This document shows positions 1 through 57,083 of a DNA stretch of 64,000 bases, one piece after another. The stretch spans positions 1,426,001-1,490,000 of the forward strand of contig NC_089430.1 in the NCBI RefSeq assembly GCF_026210795.1, read 5' to 3'. A model generated the notes under the pieces. That model saw only the letters and a list, made by a program, of their open reading frames with translations. It was not told where the DNA came from and did no database searches. The position numbers were made by a program, and so were the translations under genes. Each line of letters starts with the position of its first letter. Within the stretch, counting starts at the first letter, position 1. This DNA comes from Rhizophagus irregularis (lineage: Eukaryota).

Positions 1-1729
1 TTGAATAGTATAAATAAAAACCTGTTTCTAACCTTTATAACCTGGATGTAAAAAAAAACTTAGTAAATATAATGGATCTGCAAATTCAGCATAACGTTTA
101 TTGAATATTGCAATGGATTGACGACGAAAACACAATAATCATTTTCAGGTAAGGTTTTGATTGCAGCTCCAAGCTGAGCCAGTCCAAGCAAACAGTCAGC
201 AAGTGTACATGATTGTGATTCTAATGTTAAAATTGCTTTTTTGATAGGATGTAAAGCAAATGCTAATGCACGTACATCATCAAAAAAAGCACGAGATCGT
301 AATATTGTTAAAATTGCTTGTGGAAGAAGGTTTTCATAATCTGTTTGTAACTTTAAAAAAATACATTTCAATTAGTTAACTGTTATTATATAAAAATTAA
401 TGTAAATTAAAAGATGTATAATAATATAATTACCTTCTCCAAAACTTCTTTATGACGCCTAATAGAATCAACACAATCAAACATGGTGTGCCATTGGGTA
501 TTAACCCATCTTTTTAACCCACCTCCGCTTATATTACAAATTTTGGCCTCTTTTTTTAAAGCTGCACCTAATGAATACCACTTTTGTTAATGATTATTTG
601 CTAAATAAAAACAAAAAAAAGCAAAAAATTTATATAAAATATTACCTCCTTGATGACTTTTTTTGAAGTAAGTTACAATTGTATTGCATCGAGTTAGAAT
701 TTTATTTGCAAAAGAAGTATTGCATATATCCTTGGAAATTAGATTAATTGAATGAGCAATACAATGAACATTAAGGATATTTGGATATTTTTCAGTAATT
801 ATCTTATGAGCATTTTGAATATTTGCCCCTGCATCTGACACTATTGCACAAAATTTTTCAGAGCCAATTTGCTCAATCACTTCTTCCAATTCTTTCGCTA
901 AAAACATACCAGTATGGCTTTCATCTGATAAGTTTTTTAAACACCACAAATATTCTTTACAAGCTGGTGTATGGATGAGAAAATTCCAAATTGATTCATT
1001 TGCTGCATTGGTCCATCCATCGCATGCTTTAAATTTTAAAATTTTGAAAAATGAAAAAAATGTTATCATTAATATAATTTTCATATTTATATAAAATTGT
1101 TATCTGTTACTTACACAATGTTAAATTTGTAGAATTGTTTAATTCTTTTTATTTGCAACAGCCACTTCTTGCGTAAAAAGTTGGTTAGAAAGTATTTCAC
1201 AAGAAGGTGGTACATATCCTGGACGTAATGTTCTTACAAATTCTACAAAAAATGGATTTTTGATAATATGCCAGGGTATACTACATATGACAAAAGCTTT
1301 TACACACGCCCGATCAATTTCATGACTTTTTTCTGGAGAGAGCTTTGAACTTTCATGAAAATCTGTTATTCTTGTTTGGCTTTGTTCAGTTCTCCCATTA
1401 TTATTGAATTTTCGTCTTTTATTTGATGGATTTTCAGCTTTTGCAGCAAGTCTGTTTAGAAATAACTGTTTCACTTCTATTGGAACCTTTAAACAGTCAT
1501 TAGCAAAGTGTGCCTCTAAATTTTGGGGTGAACCTTTATGCCAAAAAGTGTTACAATATAAACAAGTAGCCTCATAGTGACCATCTGATACTTGTTTACC
1601 CTGTTTAGCGTAAGTTCCCCATACAAGTGACTTGGGCCTACCACCCAAATTTTTTGATTTTTTATTTTCTTCACATTGTAGTAAATCATCTTCTGGTAAA
1701 AACTCTTGATATTCTAGTTCACCTAACAT
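1..1729 (-). pseudogene. Degraded hAT-family transposase (BED zinc finger plus DUF659/RNase H-like core), spliced, runs off the window start
   Basis: BED finger (VWGTY..ATCLYC..W..LEAHFANDC), CDGWTN, VSDAGANI, HCIAHSINL (CxxH) and NTQWHTMFDC (TRW-like). Frameshift near 1140. GT-AG introns near 1112, 645 and 433. Confidence 0.85.
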
Positions 1730-1801
1730 TTTGCACGTCTACCGCGTCAAAAATTTAACTACGCGTCAAAATTTAAAGCTGCAGTTTCCGCAGTTTATAT
1801 A

Positions 1802-4377
1802 CAGTCGTCCCCCTCTATAGTCACACCTCTTGGGACCACACAATGCTGTGACTATAGAGAGGTGTGCTTATATGAGACTTTTACAATATAGTCACATATA
1901 TATAAAATTTTTGTATTAGCGTGACTATAAATTTTTTTTTTATTTGTTATTTTTATATAATAATCTTTATTTTAAAATTAAATATAATTATATAACATGA
2001 TAAAAATAAAGCACGTTGCCTTCTAATATGTATATCAAATCCGATTTTATTATTTTACGCTATTATAACTATTATAACTATTATAACTAATAAAAGTATT
2101 ACATCTCGCAATTATTAAAAATTATATTAATGTTATTTACCTATCAAAAAAACCATCAAGTGTACTTTGCTTTTTTGCATTGATCTCTCTAACTCTAATT
2201 ACTCGTAAGTATTTTCTAAAAATACGCAAATCACCAATATTAAACTCGGAATCTTCTTGTTGTTCAAAATAATTAACAAAAGTTTCCAACCCATTAATTG
2301 CTTTTTTCACTGATATCAGAGGAATTTCTTCATTTTCGTCATCATCTTCACTTTCTTCTACTTGATTTTCTTCATTTCGCACCATATCAATAATTTGCTC
2401 TTCAGTAAGGTGCTCTTCAGTTGGAATTTCACGATCAAGCAACTGAAAATATTCCAATACATCAGCAGTTTCTTCCGGCAAATTAATAAGAAGATTTTCA
2501 AGTTCATCATCATCTAAATCTTCTTCATCCGTATTATCATCATCACAAGATGGAAGTATACCTGTTTTGATCCAACAATTTTGAATTGTTGTTGGAGTGA
2601 CATTATTCCATGATTCAGCAATATAATCAATTGCCTCCTTAATGTTTAACTTATTTCTAAATAAAATAATAAATTAATAACATTAATAGAAAAATAATGT
2701 TAATTTTTTAAACTTACTTAACATGATCAACTCCAGAATCAAACTGCCGAATTAAATGTCTACAAAATTCTTGTTTATATTTAGCTTTAAAACTATGGAT
2801 AATACCTGCATCCATAGGTTGGAGATGAGCGGTTGTATTTGGTGGAAGATAAACAAGCTCAATATTAGTAAGATCAACAGCAGGTTTTTCTTTTTTCTTT
2901 TGTTTTTTAGATTCTTGTTCGTCATCAGATTCTGAAATTTCTTCATCATCCATATCATCATTTTTTTTAAATCTTTTTGGATTAAAGTGGGATCCTGCAT
3001 TATCAATAAGAAGTAAAACTCTTCTATCCATTGTGCGAAAGTAATAGTCAAGGTGTTTAAGCCATTCAATGAAAATATCAGATCTCATCCATGCTTTTGA
3101 ATTGGCTCGATAAATGACTGGAAGAGTTGACTTGTTGAGATTTTTAAAACATCGGGGATTTAATGATTTTCCAATTACCAAAGGACGAATTTTATGAGAT
3201 CCTGTAGCATTAGCACAAAATAAAACAGAAACTCGGCTTTTGTCCTACAGAAAATAATTATTTTGTCAAAAAGTGATTACAGAAAAATAAAAAACATTTA
3301 AAGAGTTATTTTAACGAAAAATTATTACAATAAAAATTACCATTTTACGCCCCGCAACTGCACCAGTACTCAATGTTTGGTTTGGCTCCATTCGGAAAAA
3401 AAGCCCAGTTTCATCTGCATTATAAATATCTTCCTTGTCATACTTAGCTAAAAGTGCACGAAGACGTACACGTTCTTCTGGAAGAGTTTCTATAGGGGCA
3501 CTATTGGCCTCACCTGAAAACTTAACTCTTTGAAGTCCATTCCGTTTTTTGAATCTGTACACCCAACCATTAGTAAATTTTATTTGATTTTCTCCAATAT
3601 TTAACATTTGTGCAAGTTCTATTCCTTTTTGTTGTAAAATCATATCAGTTAAAGGAAGTCCAGCGGTCACTGCTTGTGCTGTCCAAATTTGCAAGGCCTT
3701 ATCAAGTTCTGGATACTGAACTGAGCGATGACGAAATGTACATGCAGTCTGTGAAGTTGAAAGAACTGCCATCCACTTTTCACGATTTTGCCATATTTTT
3801 GATACAGTTGATCTATCAATGTTTAATTCATTATATTTTGTATTAAAGTAAAGTGCAACTTCTTCCTGTTTCACATTACTATTTGCCATTATATATTCAC
3901 ATATTTCTTTTTTTATTTCATTACTAATGGCAGAACGAATTCTCCTTGCTTTTTGTAAACGTATAGGTGGCATTATATTAGATATAAAAAAAAGTGAAAA
4001 AGATAGTTTTTGTAAAAGGATGAATTTATGTAATGAAAAAAGTTTGAAATCGAAAAATAAAACATTTTCAAATAAAAATTGTAAAGAAAAAGTTCGAAAC
4101 ATGTGGTGATTATCAACTTAAAAGGAAAATTCATTTTATGCACAAAACGCGCGATATATTTTCCGAATACATTGTTAATCACGTGATATGACTATATAAG
4201 GGGAAATTTTCATATGTTAATTATTATATCGGGACTAACTATTAGTGTGATAGTGACTATAATCGATTTGTGACTACAAAAGGGGCATTTTAATATTTAA
4301 AAAAACGGGACTTGACAATGATATGACTAAATAGGGGGTGTTCTTATATAGGGGGTGACTATAGAGGGGGACGACTG
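1802..4377 (-). mobile_element. Complete pogo/Tigger-like DNA transposon
   Basis: Perfect 23-bp TIR CAGTCGTCCCCCTCTATAGTCAC at 1802 and inverted, ending at 4377. TA on both flanks (1800-1801, 4378-4379). Confidence 0.95.
2137..3973 (-). CDS. pogo transposase (CENP-B-type HTH plus DDE_1), 3 exons (3973-3341, 3244-2718, 2656-2137), 559 aa, apparently intact
   Basis: Hand-spliced at GT-AG sites into one open frame. Motifs: FTNGWVYRFKKRNGL, YNADETGLF, LLIDNAGSH, LQPMDAGII, WNNVTPTTIQNCW. Confidence 0.92.
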
Positions 4378-33504: not shown

Positions 33505-33905
33505 GCTCTACAACTTTACTTAGTATCAAAAACCTAATTAAAAATGCTAAATTTGAGTTTTATATATAGAAACTATTAAAAATATTAAAATTGAGTACAA
33601 AATTTAGGCGTGAGCTTCGTACATTTATTCTATAAATACAGAAATTTGTAATTATATGTAATTTTATCCAAGCTACAGATGTACTTAAAAATAAAAAGTA
33701 GATTTAAAATGCAGATTTTAGTTTTATATATAGAAACTGTTAAAAATACTAAAATTAAATCTCTGAGTTGTATGTGAGCTTCATATATTTATCTTATGAA
33801 CATAGAAATTTGGAAATTATATGTAAAATTATCCAAGCTACAACTTTACTTAGTCAGAATAAGTAGATTTAAAATGTAAAATTTTAGGTTTATATAGAGA
33901 AACTA
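33505..33905. repeat. About 165-bp degenerate tandem repeat (~2.5 copies)
   Basis: Recurring CTACAACTTTACTTAGT...GTTTTATATATAGAAACT...GTGAGCTTC...ATCCAAGCTACA. Confidence 0.75.
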
Positions 33906-33932
33906 TAATTTTACATTAGTTTTTTACTTCAA

Positions 33933-34048: not shown

Positions 34049-34382
34049 AGTTAGAAAAATTCTTTACATTATTATAAAATATTTACTTTTAATGCTTCTA
34101 ATCAAAGATACTTAAAACTATTTTTATAACAATATTAATAAATTAATTTATTAAACAATAAGATATTTGAATATTATGATATTAAAATATTAAAAAATTA
34201 TATTCATTTGAGTGTAATATTATATTATATATGAATTTTAATATTTACCTTTTTTTATATATAAAGAAATTTTCTCACTATCAGTAATTGGATTTTAATT
34301 TTCTTTGACTTGTTAGACTTGCCTTATCAAGTCAAATCAAAATGGTAGAATTTTGTATTTATTATTATTATATTTATTATTA

Positions 34383-34782
34383 GGGTTTTGTTTTTTATCG
34401 CCATGGCGATGCATCGCTAGTGTCACGTGATTTTATAATTCCGGCCGGAATTAAAAGATCGTCAAAGAAATTTCCTTTTTTTGTAAGTTTGTGTAACAAA
34501 AACTTGAATTTTGCTGAAAATAAAATTGCCTTTTTTGGATTGTGTAACGTTACCTAAAGCTCTAAAAAAGGATATTTTGGCCAGCGTTATAAAATTTGGC
34601 CGAAATTAAGCACGTGATGTATAGGGAGTGACAAATAGTATTTTTTGCACTGAAAAAATTGTCCCCAGAATAAATAATAAAAATGGAAAACTAGAGGATG
34701 TGACGCGGGGTGACAAATTATTACATATGTCAAGTCACGTGACACTTGCGACACATCGCTATGGCGATTTTTTATAAAATCC
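34383..34782. mobile_element. PIF/Harbinger-like MITE (400 bp)
   Basis: Imperfect ~48-bp TIRs (GG.TTTT...ATCGCCAT.GCGATG..TCGC.AGTGTCACGTGA). TTA on both flanks (34380-34382, 34783-34785). Confidence 0.7.
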
Positions 34783-35072
34783 TTATTAAAATATATTAAT
34801 TAAAATATTGCTAATATTATCTTACAAACTAATGATTAGAAATGAACAATTTATGGTTCATTAGATATCTCACTGAGATGAATTTAATGGTTATTAAATC
34901 ATAAAAATTGTAAAAATTGGATTAATATTGACAGAGATATCCTATTTTAAAATTTTAAAGCAATAGACGTAAAATTTTGGTGACGTCAAAATCGTCACAT
35001 GACCGAAAAGAATTTGAAAATTTTTATTAACGCAGTTCATTAATTTGAAATGTCCCAAATATGTATTATTGA

Positions 35073-38000
35073 CTAGGGGTGTGGGGGGTCCAACTGGTGG
35101 TTACACAATATGATTTCGTATTGGCAAAACTGTCCTTCATATTAAATTTATATATGTTACTAATTAAATGATAAAAATTGGATGAATATCGCACACAATA
35201 AAAAAAGATTAACCATATAAAAAATGTTACACTCAAGTAAAATTGAAACATAACAGAACTGGTTTTTTGCTTCTAGGTACTTCAAAACGCGGTTGGACCT
35301 CTCTAAAAAGAAAAAATTTTAATCGGCTATTTTCATTTCAACAAATATGGTTACGAAGGTGAAAAAAGTCAAATTTAACGCTTTACTTTTAAATTTTTTA
35401 TTAATTTTAAAGTTCTTTTGTACTTAGAAACGCGTTTTAAGTGATCAAACTAACTCACAAGAACCAAAGAAACAAAAGCACCCTGAAGCCCTTCAGGAAT
35501 TATACCGATTTAACCCTGAATTTAATGGAAAACAAGTTTATTTTTTTTATAAAAAAACAAAATATAGAGAAGGGACATTGATTTATAATAATAAAGATAA
35601 GACCTTCTATGTATTTGATAAAAAAACTGGCGAAAAATATAATACTTTTTCTTCTTGGTTTTTTTTTCTTAACACTATAAAAGTATTTAGAGGAGCACGA
35701 TGTCACCGGCACCTGCCACGTACTGATAGACGAAATCTTAACATTTATAAATATATATGTATCCGTGCTTGGTTTAGATTTTATCATTTTAATTTATTCA
35801 AAATTTCAAACTTCAATAATTTCCCTTAGTGTTATCATAACTTCATTATTTTGTTTTTAATAATTTTAATTTTAAAAGGTCAATTTATTAATTATTAAAC
35901 GTTTTCTAATATGAAGCCATATTAGTAACTCTATATTAACAACTAATACCATTATTAATTATCATTATATTTTCCTAAGTTCCCAATATTATTTTAAATT
36001 TCAAGTTGAAACTCCCTCCCTTCACTTAAGTCCAAAATCTCGATCTTAAATAACTTTTCTTATCTTGAATATCTTTTCTTATCTCTTGATCATCTATCTA
36101 AAACTTAACATTCCCCAACAATTTACTTGTTATTCCATTATACATTCCCCAACTTAACATTTTCATTATAAATCTGTATCCATGAATTATTTCCCCAACA
36201 ATTGATTTGTCTGATTCCCTTTTAATTTATCATTTATAATTTTCCCATTCCATCATAATTTATATGATCCATAATTTTCTCATTCCATCAATTAAACTAT
36301 CAAAGTCCTCCCAACGAAATAATAATCTATTTATGCTAGACTACTAATAACTAATCTAATAATATAAATAATTATAAATAACTGAATTATAAATAAATAT
36401 TATTATAAATAACTAACTATTGTACAACTATAATAATGTATTTCTAATTATTTCAGTTAAATATTCTTTCGTCGGTTAAATGTTTATCCATATTCCATTC
36501 GGTATTTCATTCAGCCTTCGGATAATTATTCCTCTGTTCACGTGATTATTTCGATATCTAGGGTTACAACGATCAGCACTTGCTACAATTTTTTTTGAGC
36601 CCAATTCTTCTTCCAGTTCCAACTTAGCTTCAATATTAAGAACAACAGAACAAATTCCTTATTGGAAAATTTGCAACTCAGCAAGTATAACGGAGGTTAC
36701 ATCATTAATTAAGACAAATATTGCATCTAAGCAAGAGTTTTTTGGTGCAGCAATAAGAGAAATTATTAATGGAGTAGGCGTAATATTTTTTGGAAAAGAA
36801 GACAAAGTAGAAAAGGATTTAACAATTAGATGGCAAGAGAACTTAATTTCTTATGACATACATGTTCTTGAAAAAAAAAGCCAAAATATAAATGGTATTG
36901 TAACAGGAATTGCGATTGAAAGAAACCTCTCAGAAATAAATAAGACAATCCAATTTGTATCTAAATCAAAAATATGTCCTGGACAAATAACAAAAGGTAT
37001 TTTAATTCTTATGCATATTTTTAATTAACTTGCAAATACTAATTTGATATTAGATTTTGAACAAGTAGTCAAACTTCGGGGTGCTCATCTTGTAAATAAT
37101 CGAAAAAATTCAAATAATGTTCATGAACCCTTTGCAATTTTGGAAAACCAAGGTCAATCCAATGAAGCCTACAGAAGAATAGACTGTGATTTATTAATAA
37201 AAGATATGGATATATGTCAGAATTGTCAAAAATTAAGAAACACGTTAATAAAAATTCGAAATCGAAATCTTACTGGTGTTTCATCTATTAAAGTCAGTCA
37301 TGCGTCTCAAGAAGTTTTAATAGAAAAAGTTCAACTGCAAAGAAAGGTAAGTTATAATTATTTATAGTTAAAATTATTAAATTTAAAAGGAAGTATTAAT
37401 TAATTTATTATTTTCAAGAAAATAATAAAACAGAATCAAATTATACATACCTTGCAAGATCAAATTCAACAAAAGATAGAAAATGAAGAAGAGGAAGTAT
37501 CAGAAGACCTAGGTCAAATTGCACAAGAGATATCTAAAAGAGTTGCCAAAAACGTAGTTGACATTTCTACTTATAGCCCAATTTTTCAAGAATTGATTAG
37601 AATTCAAAGTGGTAAATCAAATGGAATAAAATATCACCCTATGTAAGTGCACATTACAATTATTAAAATGAAAAAAAAAACATACCATACATAAACCTTT
37701 ATTATATTTAGGTTTTTGCGATGGGCTATATCAGTTTACAGTCGAGGAGGTCGTGCTGCTTATGAAGCAATGAAAAGTATAATGCGATTACCTTCAATAT
37801 CTACCTTAAAAGGCTATATAAATGAAAGTCAACAACATTCGGGATGGCAAAACAAAACTACTTACCATATTTTACAAAAGATGGCAATGGAAAATATTAG
37901 TGATCATGGACGAATCGGTTTTTTTTCTCATGATTCTTTTAAAATACAGAAAGGTATGCTTTATTAGTAAGATGTTTGTTAAATAAAAAAAGAATTAAAT

Positions 38001-41000
38001 TAATTACCTGTATTTGCTATTTAATAGGTTTACTTTGGAATCAGCGAGATAATTGTTATGTTGGCTATTTAGATTTTGAAGATGAAAAAGAAGAATTACA
38101 ATCTTTTATAATGCAATGTGAAAAAGAATTGCAAACAGAATTGCAGGTGGAAAATAACTCACCTAATTCAAATTATGATCGAGGAATATCAACCCAGGTG
38201 CATCAAATTGTTTGGCATTCAGCTACTTGTAAATTTGCATATCCTATAGCATATTATGGTATTAATATTCTTACTGCACATGAAATCAATAAAATACTAT
38301 TTCAACTTGCAGCTAATCTTGAATGTATTGGCATTCATACAATTGGATCCATTTGTGATGGTGCTGGTGAAAATAGGAATCACATTAAAAGTTTTGACTG
38401 GTGGGCTTCTACCTGGTCTTTAAATGATATTGTTGAAGTTTATATTGCACAAAACAACAATTATGAGAAAGCAAAAATCATAGCAACAAACCTTGATCGT
38501 AGCAAATTTACAGTACGTTTATTAGATCCATCTTTTTCTAATAATATTCAAGCAGATCGTAATTTAATAAGACCACCCATGCCTACTAAACAAAATTGGA
38601 ATATTAATGATTCCTGTGAATTCAAAAACCCAAAGGATAATAAATGGCATACAGCTGTTGTTACAAATCTTGATTCTAAAACACAAACTTTGGTTATTAC
38701 AATTTTGTCTAATAATGAAGAATGGAGAATAGAAAATGCATCCCAAGATACATATGTTAGACCTCTTTATAATGCTCAAATACACTGGACAAATTATAAA
38801 ACAATTAATCCAATTACCAATTCACCATGGTATTTTATTAGTGATCCCACGCATGTTTTTAAAAAACTTCGAAACAATCTTTCAAAAAGTCATGTTGGAG
38901 AAGGCAGAGGACGAAATATTAGAGAAATTATGCTAGATGGAAAAGAAGTTAGTTGGCGTCATATTCAAGGTGTTTATGAATATACTTGTAAAAATGTAAC
39001 AGCAAAGATTACAAGACTTACTAAGCGTCATGTTTGGCTGACATCATGGAGTAAAATGAGAGTTGATCTTGCTGAACAAACTTTGTCAAGAGATGTTGAA
39101 AGTGCAATGGAAATGATTGATGAATTAAAGGAAATATCTTCTGGAACATGAGTAAATAATTAATAAATATATATTATTATGTAAAAAATTATAAATATTA
39201 ACAATTAAATTTTTTTATTAAGGAATTTATAAGAAACTCATACCTTTACCGGCAAATCTTTCATAGCAAAAAACCTTTAGAAAATCTTGCTGATTCACGT
39301 TTACGAACTTTAAAAGAAATTTATGATTGGTTTGTAATTAAAGATAGCCAAAAAATCAGTCCATTAAACTGGATTTCACCGCAATGCCAGTTTGATTTGC
39401 TTTTATCCATTCAAGGTTTTCTTGGAATGGTAAATGATATTTTTACTTTATACCCAAATGTAACTATTGAACCTTGTAGAGTATCTCAAGATATGTTAGA
39501 AGGCTTATTTGGTACAATTCGACAACTTGGAGGTGATTCTTCTACCCAGACACTAAAAGGATATGGCCATGCATTAAATAAATTTCAGATTACTGCTAAA
39601 GTAACTGCTGAAGTAAAAAGTCTAAATTATGGAACATCAAGTCATACTGGAATGGAATTTGATTATCTTTCTCGATGGTAAGTAATTATTATATTGGTTA
39701 ATTTTTTTCGTGTCTGAAAATAATTTGTTTATTTTTTTAAAAAAAAATTTAGTGATTATAGAAGAAAATCATCAAAAGATAAAAATGTATATCCTATCTT
39801 ATTAACCCATACTGAATTATCTAAGATGTCTTCTTTTATGCAACGAGTGTTTAAAAGTCTTCTCTTAGACGACCTGTTTATGGGAAGAATCAACATTCCA
39901 ACATTATCTTTTCGTACTGAAGCTGATCAACAAATTCAACAAATTCTTCTTCTTCAAATTGAACGTCAGCAGCTCTTTAATTCATTACTTTATAATAATG
40001 AAATTATTTTATTACTAGAAAAATGGAAAAAAGATATTAAAAATATTGCCCTAAAATCAATACCTAAAAGAAAAGGAAATCTTTGGATGACCACATGGAT
40101 TTCTCACCTGGAAGCTAATTTGAATAACTATATTTGTTCAGGAGTTTGGTTTCAGCAATTCCAAGAGGTTATAGTTTCTCAAAGTTCACTTTCTACACAA
40201 CGATTAGTTGCTTATTTTCTTATTCAAAAATTGTTAGAAGAAACATATAAGAGTGAGTTTAATGAAAATAAAAACATACAAGAGCAAGCAGATCCCACTT
40301 TAATTCCCAAAGTCATTATTACCTTAAATCGTGCTGAAGCTTCCAAATTTTCTTATATTGTTGGTTGGATACTCTTCAAGTTACTTAAAAGAGACCATTT
40401 GATGAATTCACATCCCAAATTTTCAGTTATGCGAATTTTACTTGGAGCTCTTTGCATTGAAAAGGTTGAATATACGATAGAAACAAAATTACAAACTACC
40501 AATGTTATACCCGGATCTGAATTTCTTAAGTTCATGTATCACCTAGAATCTCTGGTAATTGAATTGTTTGAAAAACATAGTGTGCTAGGGCCAAATATTT
40601 TATGTTATGTGAAAAACAGCCTTCTTATCAATTTACATTTAAACCAGATGTTTATTGAGGTTTTAAAATCTTCAAATGAGAAAACAAATGTTGAATTGGA
40701 AAATGAGGAAATGAAATTCATTTATGAAAGATGTGTCTCAATCTATATGAAGAGTCGTCAAAAAACATGGAGAGATGTTAATAATTATATTCCAGAAAAA
40801 GGTACAGCAAGCTTACGAGAAAATCTAAAGGTGATGCGCTCTAGTAACTCTACAGTAACTTCCGAAAACAAAAAATCTACCATTATAAAAAAGGCATATT
40901 TGCCGTCTGATCCTGCTAATGCTTTGGAACAACTTCGTGCATGGGCACAACTTGAAGAAGCAGAAGAGTCATTTGCGAAAGTCTTTTTGGTGCAAGAGTT

Positions 41001-41518
41001 ATTATGGTTAGTTTGGGCGTTTGGAATATCAACACAATATAAAAGAAAACAAAAATTGGTACCTATAATTGTCACTAGTTTAAAAAATAGGACACCTTTT
41101 ATTGAGGAAGCGCTTAGAAAAAATACTATTTTTATGGAATAAAAGTATTAAACTGATTAAAAAAGTATTCTATTATTGAGATCATTTGAATAAATTCGTA
41201 ATAACTAAACTTAAAATTGCAATAAAATTAATAAAATGTAAAATATAAACCTTCTTTGTCGAAATAGTAATTTTTTAAGCTATGCCAGAAAGCCAATAAT
41301 GCACCAACAGCCGTGAAATTTTGACAATGCGTAACCCCCACCTAGGGTAATTGACTGTCGAACATCGGCTTTTAAAAACGTTATGTGTCAAAAGTTTTGG
41401 GCTTGAGATGTTTCTCAGATATATTAAATTAATATGTGATCGGCAAAAATTCAGGTGACAGTTTTGTAAATACGAAATCATATTGTGTAACCACCAGTTG
41501 GACCCCCCACACCCCTAG
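35073..41518 (+). mobile_element. Complete P-element-superfamily DNA transposon (6446 bp)
   Basis: 50-bp perfect TIR CTAGGGGTGTGGGGGGTCCAACTGGTGGTTACACAATATGATTTCGTATT, extending to 62 bp with 2 mismatches. Exact 7-bp TSD TTATTGA (35066-35072, 41519-41525). Encodes a P/THAP9-like transposase. Confidence 0.93.
35347..41142 (+). pseudogene. P-element-like transposase, about 1,480 aa reconstructed. Segments: 35347-35358, 35428-~35692, 36562-36996, 37054-37346, 37419-37642, 37712-37953, 38028-39151, 39223-39677, 39753-41142. One in-frame TGA at 39149
   Basis: P/THAP9 hallmarks: AYEAMK..MRLPSISTL, FSHDSFKIQKGL..YVGYLD (D1), SICDGAGENR (D2), ISDPTHVFKKLRNNL, SKMRVDLAEQTLS, SQDMLEGLFGTIRQLGG (E), SYIVGWILFKL. 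All splice phases from 36562 onward are consistent; the join at 35692/36562 is inferred. Confidence 0.85.
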
Positions 41519-42786
41519 TTATTGATATTATTACTTGTATCACGTGATAATTTATTACGCGACTTCGAAGAAATCATTTGCTATTGCATAACGATATATC
41601 TTTTATCGATTAACAAATAACAAGAATATATTTACAAAATTTTCAATGACATTGTATTATAATTGCTTAAGAATCAAGATATACTAAAGATCAAGAGTAA
41701 AAATCGAGAATATAATATGACAAATATAGATTAGGAAAACAATACACACCAAAAATCAAGAAAATATGTATATCAGATATACTCCAAAGATCAAAAACAC
41801 AATGCACTAAAGATCAAGATCATTTTACATCCAAAGATCAAGAAAGAAATATATCCAAGATCAAATACAGGGACGAAAATAGCCAAAGATAAATGAATAT
41901 TAAAAGTAAGAAGCGTTCACACATGTCAATTAGCAAAACACATTAACAATAAATTAAATGCAGGTTCAAGGGAGTATCATTCCTATATACAGTAAAAAAC
42001 ATCAACATTTTAACGTTCTTTACAAAAAAAATTATCCTTCCTCTTCACCATACTTACTGAAGTGGGCTTTTATTTCCAATGATTTTGGTTGTTTTTCCCT
42101 TAAAAAAAAAACAGAAATAATAGAACTTTTCTATCATTCTTTACAAAAACCCTCCCTCACCTTACCGAAATGGACCTTTATTTCCGAAGGTACAAAAGAC
42201 AAGAACATTAGAAACGTTTATAACGTTCTATACAAAAAAAAACTCATAAAGAAAATTTCACGTAAGTAAACCGAAATAAATCTGTGTAAAATCGGTTAAT
42301 TTTACGTGATAAGGCGATAAATTACTTTTTCTTTTAAAATTTTATTTCATATCCTTCTTCATGATTTGTCAAATATTAAACCCTAGACAATATTGTCATT
42401 ATTTGCAAGGATTTATTGTGATGGAATGAATATCTTGGAACAGATATTAAAAAAGAGTTGAAAAAGATATTATTGAATAGATTAAAACCGGTAAAATTAT
42501 TTATAAAGAGAAGATGAAGCAGAAATTATTGCGAAAGGTTTTGTTGACATATAGGGATAGAAAATTTTATGATAGTATATTATAAATGTTTAAATACCGT
42601 AATATTTATCCGTTGATATTCTAAATTTTTAAAAAAAAGATTGTGATATGTTTATTTTATGTAATATTAAAATGAAAGGAAAATCCCTGAATAGTATGCA
42701 ATTTGTGATCAACGTCCTTTATAAATATTTCCGATACTCGTCGCTAATTAATAATCACATAATCTAATTAATCTGAGAGTTTGTAC

Positions 42787-43561
42787 GGGAGCCGTTCAAA
42801 ATCTCGACAATCAGAATCCCGCTACAACACAAACCCGACGCTCACAATCCAGAGACAAATCATAATCCCAAAACTTCAGAATTCCGTAACCACATTATTC
42901 CCGACATTTCATTATCCCGACATTCATTATCCCGAAACTATCCTCCTAGCAATTGAAATATAATGACATAATATAGAAATTCTAAAAAAATGATTTATTA
43001 AAATCTTTAATCAGTATATTAAAAAAAATATGACGCAATAATTTAATTTTTATTGAATTTAAAAGCAAGATCTTTTTTTTTAAAAAAAATTAATCAAAAT
43101 AAATAAAATTTACAAAAAATTTATAATTTGCATTTTTACAATAAATCATTAATATTTGCGAAGTGATTCTTAATTTTTGCGATGTATTATTAAATTCATT
43201 AAAATATTAATAAAAAAAAACAATAAAACATTAATATTTGCGCAGTGATTTTGCAAATCATATTTGCGAAGTGGTTTAAAAAATCATTACAGGTTACTTA
43301 ATTTTGCGATGTATGATATTAATTTTCACAACAGAAATTAATTTTGCGACATTTTAAAAATTATTACATATTTATTACAAAATATTACAATAATATTACG
43401 TCTATAAAACAAGTAATAAAAAAAATAGCGCATCAGGATAGTAAGTGTCGGGATAATGAATGTCGGGATAATGAATGTCGGGATAATGAATGTCGGGATA
43501 ATGTGGTTATGGGATTCTGAAGTTTCGAGATTATGATTTGTCGGGATTTCATAGTAAATCC
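42787..43561. mobile_element. Mutator-like (MULE) non-autonomous element (775 bp)
   Basis: Inverted arms built of 15-bp repeats CATTATCCCGACATT / AATGTCGGGATAATG. Termini GG...CC. 9-bp TSD AGTTTGTAC/AGTTTGTAT (8/9 match). Confidence 0.8.
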
Positions 43562-45730: not shown

Positions 45731-46802
45731 TTAATTTTCTTTTTTAATACAGATACCATAAGGACGCAAATCATCGTTTTTTGGTGAAATCCAAAATTCA
45801 CCGCTCCCAGTTTCTTCTTTTGAAACTTCAACTAAGCTGTTCGGATTTACTCTATTCTGAAACACGACTTTATAGTTATCCCCATCATGAGTGAATCTAG
45901 TAGCAAATTGGTACGCAATATCAATATCTGGAGTAGAATAAATTCCATTTCCAAATAAGAATCGTTTACACTTCGCCAAGTCATACCCTACTTGAGAAAT
46001 TAATTTGCAGTTATCTCTAGCAGTTCCATGATAAGAAACTATTAAAATAGATGGTATTATATTAATAAATAATAAACAAATATAAATAAGTAAAACATTT
46101 GTATATCAAAAAAAGATGATAAATACCTGGCCATTCATTTGTTGCAGAGCTTGTTGAAGATTTTCTATCAACTCCAAGCCAAATGTTATCACCATATTTA
46201 TTAAGAACATTGATAGCAATTCTTTTCCAACCACAAGGTCGCTTGTATTCAACATTTCCTCGCATAAAAGTTTTACCTTTATCATCTATTTGTGTAAAAT
46301 CATAATCGTAACTTGGGGCAAGTGAATCCGGATGAATGAATAAAACAGTAGAAGGGGAAGGATAACTACCATGAGTACCATCGCCACCACTACTATCTCC
46401 ACCACCACCTAATCTAACTACTAATTGTATTGTAGAATGAGATCCTATTTTGTAACTTGCTAAAGTAAGATTATCTTCAAGTTGTTTACCTGCAAATATT
46501 AATCTTTGTTGATTTGGTTCTATACCTAATTCTCCTTTAATGTTTTCTTTTAATTGGCGAATTTCATCACTTGGCCAAACTTCTACTCCTATATTTCTAC
46601 CGTTAATTCCCATAATGAATATGCGAATTCGTTCTTCTTCATTAGATGTTGGCACTCTGCCACCAACTAAATGAGATTGATGAAGAGCTTTTTGATCCAA
46701 TTGAGAACATCCATCATGTCCTCCTTTTGAATAATCATCATAAGTAATAACCGAACGATTCGTTATGGCACTTAATGCTGCGGCTAAAAGTGAATTTGAC
46801 AT
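45731..46802 (-). CDS. Ubiquitin-like domain plus PARP-like (NEURL4/Gig2-type) ADP-ribosyltransferase domain; 2 exons (46802-46127, 46038-45731), 327 aa
   Basis: Ubl: [59 protein letters not shown] (across the intron), [30 protein letters not shown]. Confidence 0.88.
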
Positions 46803-49179
46803 TTTCGCTTTTCATGAAAATAAGTATTAAAAAAGATTATTTTATTTCATATATTATTTATTTACTTATTTTTTTAAAAGAAAACGCACTGCTTAAATAT
46901 TTACATTTTGATATTTTTTTAGAAAAAACTTTTGTTTATTTCAAATATGTTGATATAATGATATAAAGAGCTTAAGATCTTCAATAGGTCACTGTATATT
47001 ATATGCATTTATGCCCGAAATTATCCATACATCCCTCCTCTAAGAGGCTATGTAAGTGGATAATGTTACCGAATATATCGGTAAATAAGAGTCGTATCTT
47101 AATATGACTCAACATATTTACTTCTATCGATAAGTTGGCGGAAGGTATATTAATATCTATTTCTCCATCTCTTTTTCTGACATCAAAGGGCGAAATCTAA
47201 TCTATCGATATCCTATTGATATCTGATTATTAATGTTTCATCGTAATATATCAATGTAATTACAATAGTGATAGTTTTTATTGTAAGCCACTTTTTAATA
47301 GAACACAAATGACAAATTTAAATAGTTTAATAATTACTATTGAGCTAATTTTCCTTAATAAAAATTGTATACATATAGATAATACAAATACAGAAAATAA
47401 ATAATATAAATAATATAAACAAAAATAAAAATAAATATCATAATAATACTACATATGTAAATATGATCGAATATAATCAATATCATCTATTAAGTTAATC
47501 TGTGTACACAAATCAGCGGTTGTATATCGACGTAAATCGTCATGTAACGTTAGGAATCGACGTGTACATAATGTACGTAAATCATGTGCGCAATATTTCG
47601 CGTAACAATAATAATATGAAATTCAACATCCCAATGTTTAACTTATTCAGAAAAATTTCATACACATACGTTCAATTATTGTTAGAATTCGAATTCTTTA
47701 ATGAATAATTATTTAGTTTATTTCATGTATTGAATATTCATTCACTGACGTTATTGGTTAAGTCTAACCTGATAATCAAATAGCACCCATCTACCCGATA
47801 GACTAAGATCTAACCCTATACGTTAGATCCTTTGTCGATCTGGTGGATGGGACCCATTGTCGACTCTTTTTAGAGGCAGATCTGTCGATTAATGACACTA
47901 AACTTCGAATATCTGGATCTCGAAAAAAAAATTATCCATAGACGACTGAAATTATATTATTGAGAATGTGTTATAAATTTTTAAATACATGAAATATTTA
48001 TGTAATAATTGTCTATCATATCTAATCGTCATCCAGAATTTACTGTTCACGGAAATCACAGAAAATATTTTTAACCAATCACTTTAAATTTTTAACATTA
48101 AACATATAAAAAGACACTACAAACTTATTTATTTGTACTTTACTTGTTATTTATTGGATAGGAAAGTAGTTATAACATTTAACTAATTACATGTATCTTA
48201 ATTATTGGAGGAAACGTCCACTATGTGACACATTTTCATCCAATAATTGAGACACAAGTGATTTATTGACTGATATAGCTCCTATCTAATAAATATCTAA
48301 TAAATATATTATTGTTCTGCTCATGTTAACTGATGAAATAAACTTACTTTTATCTAGCTTTTATAGATAGGGTATATAGTAAAATCAGTATAGTACGATT
48401 TATCAAATTTAGTAAGTACATAGATGGGGGAGTAGCTATTTCGGTCACAGAACCGAATGATTGGAATGAAACCCGATATAGCGATATAGCCCCAAAGTGT
48501 GATTCTGGCGTAGCATCATAAATAAGCTTCATATTTAACTATCTATAAATTTCATTTTATGCTATTTTTAACAAATTTTTATTTACACCATTTTTTACTC
48601 CACCTCATTTTATCAATTACCATTTATTATTGTTATGTCTAATAAAAATATTGGTCTATGAAAATCTGCATAATCCTATTGGGCTGAACGATAAAAAGAT
48701 AATATAACGCGGGAAAAATTCTTACTGTAGCTTATACTTATTAATAATTCGATTCGAAGTAAGAAATGAGCGAGATAATGAATATTGAGTGAGATCCTGT
48801 AAGTAAAGTAGACAAAAATTAAGCATTTAATTTAATAAATTAATTTCCTTTAATGTTTCTTAATGAGAAGTTATAAAGAAATATTATGAAATCAAGTTTT
48901 CATGCCTATACGTTCAAATATTGTTAGAATTCTTTAATTGAATAGCTATTCAGAAAATGTTTGTCTCACGTATTGATTAGTCTAACCTGTTAATCAGATC
49001 ATTTACACCTTTTTAGAGTTAGACCTGCAATCAATTTCACAAAATTTGAATCTCGAAAAATAAGTATCTTATAAACAACTGAATTAGAAAAATTGTCAAT
49101 TTTTTTTTATTTATCGCTGTTTTCGAATCAGGTGCGTGATGATCAACAAATAAAAGTTCACACACTTATAAGATACAAG

Positions 49180-53429: not shown

Positions 53430-56400
53430 ATGTCATCTCACGAACGATGTGAAAAATGTGGTGAACAATATACAGATATATATAATAAATGGTGTAAGCC
53501 ATGCCAAATAAATATTTTAAATAAACATTTAATAAGTTGGAACAGCGGAAATGAAAAAATTGACAATTTAATAAAAGAAATGCAATTAAAAATTGATTAT
53601 GATATTGGTATAGTATTTGAATGGATACCATACAATCAATTTATATTTAGCAATATGGAAAGATGGTCCATTAAGTTACAATAACAATAAAAATGAATAT
53701 ATAAGAAATCAGAATAAAAAAGTCTTTTTGAAACACTTGTTTAATTCAAACAATTCCATTAATGAATTTTTATTTAAGGTATGGAGTCTCTTTATTAGTT
53801 TATTTAAATGATGTAAATGCTTTATAATATAAGAATTTTTTTTTTATACCTAATAGGATAAAATAGAAAAATGTTATTATAAAAAGAAAATATATGGAAT
53901 ATCTCAAAGTTCAAATACAAAAGATTATGTTATGGTTATCTTGGATGGATTTTATTGTGAAAAATGTGGCAAAAAATATAAAAATGAACGCTATAAGTGG
54001 TGTAAAACATGTCAAATAAATGATTTAAATAATAATTTTGCAGATTGGTCCAGTGGAAATGAAAAGATTGATAATTTAATTCAAGAGATGAGATCAAAAA
54101 TTAATAGCCCGTGGGATAATATATTTGAATGGATACCTTATAATCAATTTAAGGATATTAAAGAAATTGACAAAGAAGGTTTTGCTTCAATATATAAAGC
54201 AATATGGAAGGATGGTCCATTAAAGTATAATAATAATATAAATAAATATACAAAAATCCAGCAAAATAAACATGTTACTTTAAAATGTTTGATTAATCTA
54301 CAAAATGTTAATAATGAATTTTTAAACAAGGTATGAAATTTCCTTAAATATTTATGATGCATTGTCAGTATAATAATTTTTTTTTTTATTAACAGGTTAA
54401 AATACATTCAGTCAGTATTTCTAATTATAATAATTGTATATATGGAATAACCAAAAATCCAAATACAAAAAATTACATTATAGTTCTTTCAAACAGATAT
54501 TGTGAAAATTGTGATGAAAAATATACAAATTTATATAAATGGTGTCGACCGTGTCAAATAATTGACTTAAAAAATGATTTTATGAATCGGACTAGTGGAA
54601 ATAAAAAAATTGACAAGTTAATTCAAGAAATGCAATTAAAAATTTATTCTTACAAAGATATTATAATTGAATGGATACCATACAATCTGCTTAACATCAT
54701 TAAAGAAATAAACAAAGGAGGGTTTATTGCGTATATAGCTTTATGGGTTGATGGTCCGTCAAATTATAATTTGTATAAAGAGAGATATGTAAGAGATCAG
54801 CAGAATAAACGGGTTGCTTTAAGATATTTATGTGATTCGCACAATGATAATACCGATGAATTCCTAGTAAATGAGGTATGAAAATTTCTATCTAGAATAA
54901 AAAATATATATTTTTGATATAATAATTTTTTACACTTAATAGGTTAAAGAATGTTCAATTAATGCTCCAGGTGGTAATAATGGTTTTCCAATATATGGAA
55001 TATCTCAAGATCCAGATACAAAAGATTATATTATGGTTCTTTGTAATGAATATTATTGTGAAGAATGTGGTGAAAAATATACAGATATTCTTAATAAATG
55101 GTGTAAGCCATGTCAAATAAACTATTTGAAACCATCTACAACTAGTAAAATTGAAATAATTGATTATTTGATTCAAATAATGCAGCTAAAAATTGCTTCT
55201 TGTAATGATATAGTATTTGAATGGATAACATACAATCAATTTAATCAAATAAAAGAAGTAAGCAAAGGTAATTTTTCTGTAGCAATATGGAAGACTGGTC
55301 AATTAAATTATGATAAATATTTGTCAAAATACAGAAGAAATCAGAAGAATGAAAATATTATATTAAAGTATTTACACAACACACAAAATATCGTTAGTGG
55401 ATTTCTAAATGAGGTATAAATTTTTTTTTTGTTAGTTAATTGTCTCAGTTTTTTTTTAATGTAACAATTTTTTATATCTATTAGGCTAAAGCATATTCAA
55501 TTGAAAGAAAAGATGATTATATTAATATATATGGTATAACTCAAAATCCGGATTCAAAAGATTATATTATGGTCATTTCAGATGGATATTGTGAAAGATG
55601 TTATGAAAAATATACAGATTTGCTTAACAAATGGTGTAAACCATGTCAAATAAATTATTTTAAAGAAAATTTTACAAACTGGACTAGTGGAAATAAAAAA
55701 ATTGATAATTTAATTCAAGAAATGCAATTAAAAATTGATCGTTGTGGCAGTTTAATATTTGAATGGATACCATATGATCAGTTTAATTATATTAAAGAAG
55801 TAGGTATAGGTGGTTTTGCTAAAGTATATTCAGCAGTATGGGTAAATGATCAGTTACGTTACAATTGTCTTGAAAAAAGGTATGCAAGATATGGCCAGAA
55901 TAGAGAGGTTGCACTAAAATGTTTATATAATTCAGAGAATATCACTGATGAATTTTTAAATGAGGTATGAAATTTCTTAATTTTATACTTTTTATACTTT
56001 TTTTTTATAATACATAATAATATATTTTTAAATAGATTAAAGCATATTCAATGAATATCTTTGGGAATATTCTTCCAATATATGGAATATCTCAAAATCC
56101 AGATACAAAAGATTATATTATGGTTCTTGGTTATGCAAAGGGTGGAAATTTTAATTATTGGGTAAATAACAATAATAACAATTTTAATTGGCTAAATAAA
56201 ATGAAGATACTATGTAATATTATCAAAGGACTCAAGGAAATTCACCAAAATCAAATGGTTCATCGTGATTTTCATACAGGAAATATATTATTTCAATCTA
56301 AAACTTTAAATTATACATATATTTCAGATATGGGATTGTGTGGAAGAGCTGATGATGTTAATAATCACAATAATATTTATGGAGTTATGCCTTATGTAGC

Positions 56401-57083
56401 ACCCGAAGTATTAAAAGGAAAACCATATACTCAAGCAGCAGATATATATAGTTTTGGTATGATTATGTATTTTGTTGCAACTGGGAAACAACCTTTTGCT
56501 AATAGTAAGCATGACCACTATCTAGCATTGAATATATGTAAAGGAGGCAGACCTGAATTAAATGAGCCAGAAGCACCTGAATGTTATATTGATTTGATGA
56601 AAAAGTGTTTGGATTCAAATCCAGACAATAGACTAAAAGCAGCCGAAATAGAAGAATTGCTCAAATTATATTATTATTCGTATAAATATGATGAAGTTTA
56701 CGATGAATTTTACAAAAAATCACCAGCAGGATCAAGCTTTAAAATTTGTATGAAAATTGAAAAGGAACAGAAATATTATGAAATTGAAAGGCAATTCAAA
56801 ATATCAGAAGAATATAGAAAAGTGAACCAGCATTTGTTCATTAACAATCTTACTACTCATCTACAAGCTATTTATACATCCCGATTACTTAATCCTTTTG
56901 TAGAGGAATTCCTTAAAGATGGTAATAATTTTGTAACTTAAGCAATATTTTTTTTAAATTTATTATAATATTTTAATTAATATTTTTTAATTTTTAACAG
57001 ATATCAATAAATATAAAATTACTGACGATATGAGTGTTGATTTTTGTTCATTGATCGAAGAATCAAGTGATCAGAATGATTAG
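53430..57083 (+). CDS. TKL-type kinase with five tandem [Cys-finger plus kinase N-lobe] modules; first module frameshifted near 53640; last exon 57001-57083
   Basis: Five repeats of CEKC..Y....WCKPCQ..SGN..ID.LI.EMQLKI..FEWIPY..EFLNE|V, each with an intron at the same position. A single C-lobe: HRDFHTGN, ISDMGL, GVMPYVAPE. Confidence 0.82.

Follow-up and report, generated by a model that had tools for sequence, protein, structure and literature searches.

A dead P-superfamily transposon of Rhizophagus irregularis from a Glomeromycota lineage with a predicted RAMA fold in the place of THAP and a predicted Tudor pair inside the catalytic core

Results

We analysed a 64,000-nucleotide stretch of the Rhizophagus irregularis genome (assembly GCF_026210795.1, contig NC_089430.1, positions 1,426,001 to 1,490,000 of the forward strand; hereafter the window, with position 1 as its first letter), in which positions 35073-41518 are occupied by a cut-and-paste transposon of the P superfamily. 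The element is 6,446 bp long and is bounded by perfect 50-bp terminal inverted repeats (TIRs) and by a 7-bp target-site duplication (TSD), TTATTGA; finding both repeats (35073-35122 and 41469-41518) and the duplication bore out the initial annotation, which had described a complete element. Members of the P superfamily have TSDs of 7 or 8 bp (PMC3698922; here and below, PMC numbers stand for the available passages of the papers), and the ends of this copy agree with that. The full architecture was taken from an intact relative, the metagenome locus L002. This element measures 5,535 bp, has a TIR at either end, shares all seven introns and carries an open frame of 1,468 amino acids (aa), and thus has the uninterrupted transposase open reading frame (ORF) that the window copy lacks. 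Folds were examined on a model of another relative, P0006, built from a 29-row alignment, with a mean predicted local distance difference test score (pLDDT) of 55 and mostly 70-89 in three domains. The outgroup consisted of 33 non-Glomeromycota P-type proteins, the top long matches among 2,081 at an expectation value (E) of at most 0.001. The features of the element are as follows.

35066-35072 (no strand): left TSD, TTATTGA, 7 bp
35073-35122 (+): left TIR, 50 bp, perfect; extends imperfectly to 35134
35128-35134 (+): motif ARCTGTC, bp 56-62 from the left end, candidate transposase-binding site
35347-41142 (+): transposase gene, 8 exons and 7 introns, 1,478 codons, broken here; same 7 introns in the intact L002
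35479-36641 (+): N-terminal domain with predicted RAMA fold (model of P0006), aa 22-118, split by the insert
35701-36568 (no strand): insert of 868 bp resembling a solo long terminal repeat (LTR), TG...CA ends, multicopy, ACGA duplication
36660-37226 (+): alpha/beta domain and C-x-G...D-C...CxxC putative C4 zinc finger, common to other P-type transposases
37245-37895 (+): coiled coil and helix-turn-helix (HTH); profile matches 33/33 outgroup proteins, long helix in the model
37929-38400 (+): N-terminal half of RNase H, with D483 (37932) and D600 (38357); PF21787
38411-38584 (+): predicted Tudor/Agenet-fold barrel 1, cage positions I/E/L, no aromatic cage
38594-38773 (+): predicted Tudor/Agenet-fold barrel 2, cage positions N/H/I, no aromatic cage
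38843-39300 (+): D(2)H motif and GTP-binding-type insertion domain; PF21788, aligns to Drosophila 6p5a
39149-39151 (+): premature in-frame TGA, codon 864, upstream of the catalytic Glu
39487-39501 (+): QDMLE motif with the catalytic E957
39991-40251 (+): extra helical bundle, no specific structural match
40318-40791 (+): helical domain resembling the Drosophila P C-terminal domain (CTD), 6p5a_B
40903-41142 (+): conserved C-terminal helical tail, possibly SAP-like (weak), pLDDT <50
41457-41463 (-): motif ARCTGTC, right end
41469-41518 (-): right TIR, 50 bp
41519-41525 (no strand): right TSD, TTATTGA

The catalytic motifs of P and THAP9 transposases that had been reported for this locus were all present in the spliced model, at D483, D600, D762-x-x-H (the D(2)H motif at 762) and E957, and the core matched the P-element transposase profiles PF21787 (E 3.8e-8) and PF21788 (E 2.1e-8) above their curated cut-offs, with PF21789 just under its cut-off. 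A profile of the family matched the Drosophila P transposase structure 6p5a (E 0.005). The parts follow the order of the P superfamily, with a coiled coil and an HTH ahead of the core and a CTD-like domain after it, the CTD match being modest. Among the residues that contact GTP in the Drosophila protein, K385, K400, V401, S409 and D528 are kept or conservatively changed, and F443, D444 and N447 are replaced by R, Q and H; because of these three changed positions, GTP use may differ from that of Drosophila P. The GTP-base motif (codons 873-878; 39247-39264) is altered in all intact-looking Glomeromycota rows, and the position of N447 is H in 13 of the 14 filled rows.

The spliced model of the transposase gene has seven GT-AG introns of 57-75 bp and yields 1,478 codons, close to the frame of about 1,480 aa proposed initially, but the frame is not open: the 868-bp insert splits exon 2 and codon 864 is TGA, and the window copy is therefore dead and non-autonomous. 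At codon 864, all seven loci with a readable junction carry AGA. An assembly error was rejected for the stop, since contigs from two studies (X8 and X15) that were not flagged as a possible source cross it unchanged; CpG decay was excluded by the AGA of the relatives, and splicing around the stop was rejected because the upstream donors would remove at least 16 codons of the insertion domain. The public gene model P0001 (779 aa) begins after the insert and stops at the same TGA.

The junctions of the insert are crossed by contigs from several runs, which argues against an assembly error here as well. The insert falls inside the N-terminal domain, relatives being continuous across that point, and it is flanked by a 4-bp duplication, ACGA (35697-35700 and 36569-36572). 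Other copies of it have different flanks at 35701, and their summed depth in the contigs is several times that of the unique interior. With its TG...CA ends, which we take to be an LTR signature, a short TSD, multiple copies and no coding region, the insert is best read as a solo LTR nested in the element. An ordinary intron was ruled out by these ends, the 4-bp duplication, the differing flanks elsewhere and the uninterrupted relatives; on paper, 14 listed in-frame GT/GC-AG cuts could remove the insert, those that cut at its edges having a non-consensus donor, and no spliced joint removing it was present among the matches listed, all of which were contigs. In the RNA run X18, only pieces less than 99% alike were found, and the joint of a modelled intron was absent among the matches listed. 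A 51-bp piece of the insert family also matches 47400-47446 at 82%, in a low-complexity stretch; the parent element was not found.

The largest exon is 98% identical to P0001, a Rhizophagus irregularis record in UniRef, and 32 of the 33 matches of the UniRef search are named Glomeromycota proteins, with named relatives in eight genera (Rhizophagus, Glomus, Diversispora, Gigaspora, Dentiscutata, Entrophospora, Ambispora and Paraglomus). UniRef names some of these relatives 'Agenet domain-containing' or 'Tudor domain-containing', so automatic annotation had already noticed the domain. In a quick tree of the core, which kept 48 of 51 rows (3 were too short) and was built without Drosophila P, Galileo, or rust or Allomyces P elements, the 20 Glomeromycota rows formed one group on a long stem, with a support of 100 in the Shimodaira-Hasegawa-like approximate likelihood ratio test (SH-aLRT); the tree leaves the sister group unsettled (support 90, long branches). 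The ratio of nonsynonymous to synonymous substitution rates (dN/dS) between the window copy and L002 was 0.22 overall, 0.18 for the RAMA-like domain, 0.36 for Tudor-1 and 0.53 for Tudor-2 (one sequence pair, with about 60 codons per Tudor), and the domains had thus been under purifying selection.

The RAMA-like domain proposed in the initial annotation was recovered as a predicted fold. Residues 19-118 of P0006 matched the RAMA domains of MPND (7ydt; Z 9.5, root-mean-square deviation (rmsd) 3.0, 87 aligned) and CcrM (6pbd; Z 7.8, rmsd 4.2, 88 aligned), and these two independent RAMA structures were the sole matches to residues 16-119 among the best 50 listed. RAMA sequences are poorly conserved (PMC9963953), and no RAMA was matched by sequence among PDB sequences. 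A profile of the domain matched none of the 33 outgroup transposases; all 52 of its matches were in Glomeromycota, and since every one of them also includes some other part of this transposase, there was no sign of a host donor. The domain is present in all eight genera sampled and is basic, with K+R against D+E of 15/8. The statement that THAP is missing also stood: no THAP match was found in 8 window ORFs or 24 Glomeromycota homologues, and the predicted fold of the N-terminus differs. THAP binds the transposon ends and not the target, and it is described as confined to animals (PMC7776569), so that one would not expect it in a fungus. Swaps of the N-terminal domain are common among relatives: Pfam detects THAP in 2 of 28, some of which are truncated, and others have C2H2, zf-AD or RAG1-like domains. 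A clade of THAP-less P-type transposases (P0104, P0107, P0110, P0114, P0115, P0122, P0123 and P0126), some of them named Sycon ciliatum, has C2H2 fingers between the coiled coil and the HTH.

Near the TIRs, all 8 of 8 ends, from six elements, carry the motif ARCTGTC at roughly bp 56-62, with adjacent bases that vary even between the two ends of L002; it has only 2 exact matches in the window, and CpG and ApT are both absent from it. In the Drosophila P element, the TIRs are bound by the HTH and internal sites beside them by THAP (PMC7776569), the 5' THAP site lying at bp 54-61 (PMC3698922, Table 1), and ARCTGTC stands at about this position. The position of the conserved motif makes the RAMA-fold domain its likely binder and, by analogy with Drosophila, suggests that this domain took over the end-binding job of THAP.

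The Agenet-like pair that had been noted within the RNase H core was likewise recovered, as a predicted tandem fold with a Foldseek match to ADCP1 (E 4.5e-6). Residues 607-735 of P0006 matched Tudor barrels (Z up to 10.4, rmsd 1.2, 54 aligned), with pLDDT of 70-89 over residues 611-730; the Pfam Agenet match (E 4.4e-4) was under the cut-off. The spacing between the second Asp and D(2)H was 159-169 aa in 14 of 18 Glomeromycota rows (111, 111, 133 and 58 in the remaining four) and 29-47 aa in 30 of the 33 other P-type rows, where the other 3 were regular-expression (regex) mis-hits; this wider spacing makes the Tudors a real lineage-specific insert. Profiles of the Tudors matched 0/33 of the outgroup. 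P0168, considered as a further P lineage that might have an insert in this position, proved to be a regex mis-hit. At least one Tudor was found in six genera (Rhizophagus, Glomus, Diversispora, Gigaspora, Dentiscutata and Entrophospora) and weakly in Ambispora.

ADCP1 requires a Y/W/F cage (PMC6318295), and the conserved aromatic cage by which a reader of methyl-lysine or methyl-arginine would be recognized was not found in this family. All three cage positions were aromatic in 2 of 36 Tudor-1 rows and in none of 32 Tudor-2 rows. Counted by position, F, W or Y stood at 13/37, 9/37 and 2/37 in Tudor-1 and at 1/33, 20/32 and 0/36 in Tudor-2 (a set that includes one Tudor-1 cross-match), with a cage register that comes from a weak sequence alignment to the SPF30 Tudor (E 0.15) and not from model coordinates. 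The surfaces of the two Tudors are near neutral, with K+R against D+E of 7/6 and 6/8. P0047 (named Dentiscutata erythropus) and P0052 are near-identical in the Tudor-1 region and are the best candidates for a true reader. In an Entrophospora-type lineage with a single Tudor (L009:455-703; P0013, P0014 and P0018), Tudor-2 was lost in frame, at the DNA level in L009; this lineage kept diverging, its identities spanning 81-90%.

Two further parts of the protein had been singled out as special. The Cys-rich region did not keep this status, being common to other P-type transposases: the profile of the alpha/beta domain and C4 finger was detectable in 7 of the 33 outgroup proteins, and BLASTP to P0033 gave E 2.5e-19 over aa 176-610. 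Its candidacy as a new reader was ruled out by this presence in other P-type proteins. Residues 118-222 of P0006 matched the Mediator chain 7emf_Q (Z 9.4, rmsd 4.9, 93 aligned); 'RWD-like', 'C4 finger' and 'SAP-like' serve here as descriptive labels for the respective domains. The long C-terminus was special only in part. Last-exon residues 189-346 matched the Drosophila P CTD (6p5a_B; Z 6.7, rmsd 4.0, 108/118 aligned), a modest Z that is below those of several unrelated helical rows matching another part of the model, and the rest has no clear structural match; for the C-terminal region as a whole, Foldseek gave no match at E of at most 0.001. The tail matched Fan1_SAP at E 0.11 in 1 of 5 copies, in a low-confidence model.

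Within the window, the copy is surrounded by kinase and Sel1 genes and by other transposon remnants. The kinase and Sel1-repeat genes lie at 5234-25922 and 53857-56938, with four similar ORFs of about 160 aa, which contain Cys, ahead of one kinase. On the minus strand, a hAT-like DUF659 ORF adjoins a pogo/Tc5-type transposase with DDE_1 and HTH_Tnp_Tc5 (590-4117), and an ORF with a ubiquitin domain (PF00240, E 1e-20) lies within a longer unknown protein (46065-46811). About 2.4 tandem copies of a 165-bp unit occupy 33508-33906, and at 42854-43542 there is a foldback-like 690-bp element with 48-bp arms at 90% and inverted 15-bp tandem arrays inside. Just left of the transposon, at 34374-34791, are 60-bp inverted arms, 75% complementary and 298 bp apart, resembling a miniature inverted-repeat transposable element. 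The left TIR region itself (35073-35130) has many TIR variants among the contigs and a summed contig depth far above that of the interior, several-fold to about 50-fold, which is not a copy number; the variants and the depth suggest numerous related ends or non-autonomous derivatives.

Discussion

On balance, we think it probable that the window holds a dead copy of a Glomeromycota-wide P transposon whose predicted RAMA fold, in the place of THAP, binds the element's own ends and whose predicted Tudor pair adds grip on DNA or nucleosomes without reading methyl marks. In an intact copy, the HTH would hold the TIR, the N-terminal domain would bind the subterminal ARCTGTC and the coiled coil would dimerise the transposase; the DDE/D(2)H core would then excise the element and insert it with a 7-bp stagger, and the cage-less Tudors would add a non-specific contact with DNA or the nucleosome.

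Several points weigh against this reading. For the N-terminus, a Pfam search with 10 members gave no RAMA match, the ESM Atlas gave none either, and the assignment comes solely from predicted structure; a SAND or related fold is also possible for the modelled domain, and no SAND structure was present among the matches listed for the P0006 model, which are filled by Tudor matches. In MPND and CcrM, RAMA reportedly contacts DNA through the backbone and shows no base specificity (PMC9963953), which is a poor fit with recognition of a specific site, and the C4 finger or the HTH could bind ARCTGTC instead. The 8 ends share ancestry, so that the conservation of the motif does not amount to 8 independent observations; L002 lacks a clean TSD, and the 7-bp stagger is that of the window copy alone. 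For the Tudors, the top Foldseek matches are the tandem Agenet readers ADCP1/AGDP (E 4.5e-6), which recognize dimethylated lysine 9 of histone H3 (H3K9me2), the second cage position of Tudor-2 is Y or H in 32 of 32 rows, and P0047 and P0052, of one lineage, keep F/Y/Y in Tudor-1. Finally, the RNase H part of the P0006 model has pLDDT below 50, and the placement of the Tudors relative to target DNA is therefore not given by the model.

The initial annotation had proposed that this lineage chooses its targets by reading DNA or histone methylation, the Tudor pair, the RAMA domain or both steering insertion into or away from marked chromatin. We regard such mark-guided targeting as unlikely. It draws on the match to H3K9me2 readers, on the F/Y/Y triad that is intact in 2 of 36 Tudor-1 rows, and on the original proposal of RAMA as a candidate sensor of N6-methyladenine (6mA), fused in eukaryotes to Tudor, chromo and PHD domains (PMC4738411); in addition, the copy has kinase and Sel1 genes and other transposon remnants as neighbours, gene classes reported to be heavily CG-methylated (PMC8647823). 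The proposal is nevertheless left unsupported, as the cage is missing from the window copy and from nearly all relatives, Tudor-2 was lost in one lineage, and binding by the MPND RAMA is unaffected by 6mA, discrimination of 6mA being disputed even for that domain (PMC9963953). The level of 6mA is low in Glomeromycota, below 0.3% (PMC11258239), and a single site amid many repeats is the outcome to be expected from selection by itself. A broader version is in our view just as doubtful: a Glomeromycota P lineage of long standing that carries parts of its own for reading chromatin, in which the Tudor/Agenet pair in the catalytic domain and the RAMA domain would jointly steer insertion by histone or DNA methylation and help to build the two-compartment genome that mycorrhizal fungi have, the cage being intact in P0047 and P0052 and re-purposed elsewhere.

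It is also conceivable, though we give it little credence, that the Tudor pair, having no cage, acts through protein interaction and ties the transposase to a host factor, such as a chromatin or small-RNA pathway protein, and so biases insertion or dampens silencing. The near-neutral surfaces of the Tudors, set against the basic RAMA-like domain, argue against strong DNA binding by the Tudors, and the Tudor fold was kept across several genera; no partner was suggested by any analysis, however, and Tudor-2 is dispensable in one lineage. Very improbable is the idea that the extra domains are captured passengers, kept because they are fused in frame and must fold and without a role in transposition: the Tudors do have the highest dN/dS in the protein, a decayed cage and a deletable second barrel, but the RAMA-like domain is in all eight genera with a dN/dS of 0.18, at least one Tudor persists in six genera and weakly in Ambispora, and an insert without use should have disappeared from a catalytic domain more frequently.

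The reading that we prefer, with end binding by the RAMA-fold domain and a cage-less Tudor pair, suggests a way in which P elements might recognise their ends in organisms other than animals, which lack THAP. The family offers a natural series (two Tudors or one, with the cage retained or missing) in which to ask if cut-and-paste insertion is steered by accessory domains, and its architecture may alter the site for the GTP cofactor, a feature regarded as exclusive to P. The intact L002, together with published methylation and Hi-C data for R. irregularis, makes these questions testable.

Comparison with known systems

P elements are rare in fungi, with 11 transposase-bearing copies in a 2017 survey (PMC5751038); the text passages of a later survey of these fungi (PMC11952901) hold nothing on P elements, which its supplements could list. 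A curated transposable element (TE) library of R. irregularis contains families labelled 'P' and 'P-Fungi' (PMC11075540, Table S4), the same species and superfamily label, and the present family may well be among them; in the passages and supplement of that paper these entries appear as labels and counts, with no domain architecture described. In the open literature, which leaves aside Repbase, Dfam and most subscription journals, we found no DNA transposase with Tudor/Agenet or RAMA domains among the reports listed, and the architecture looks undescribed.

Among transposons with related folds, the Tudor-bearing Gypsy-10_Ec32 of Ectocarpus was called the first reported TE with a Tudor domain in 2025 (PMC12477816). 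Like it and like chromodomain integrases, the present family has a royal-family fold fused to a transposon enzyme; Gypsy-10_Ec32, however, is an LTR retrotransposon with a C-terminal domain, whereas here a predicted tandem pair, mostly cage-less, lies inside the catalytic domain of a DNA transposase. The likeness to the tandem Agenet proteins ADCP1, AGDP1 and AGDP3 and to the RAMA domains of MPND and CcrM is one of predicted folds. Unlike in ADCP1, the Y/W/F cage (PMC6318295) is not conserved, and identity in the structural alignments is 4-22%.

Drosophila P (751 aa; 6p5a) and THAP9 show the same succession of parts as this transposase (PMC7776569): a coiled coil and an HTH, a split RNase H that carries DDE and D(2)H, a GTP-binding-type insertion domain and a CTD-like domain. 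Drosophila P also has TIRs with a conserved subterminal site. Unlike them, the protein described here is about twice as long, has no THAP and a predicted RAMA fold at its N-terminus, carries a tandem Tudor insert of about 120 aa between the second Asp and D(2)H, and ends in an extra helical bundle and tail; the TSD is 7 bp and not 8. A 7-bp TSD is shared with Galileo and 1360/Hoppel, which are intronless in contrast to the seven introns found here (PMC3698922), and Galileo carries THAP and has long TIRs (PMC3688188) where this element has no THAP and 50-bp TIRs. P-type transposases without THAP from sponge, amphioxus and crinoid and from metagenome records (P0104-P0189) have the same core, yet none of these 33, unlike the Glomeromycota rows, matches the RAMA-like or Tudor profiles. 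The element is thus a member of the P superfamily that stands outside the canonical THAP-bearing group, as a new architectural variant.

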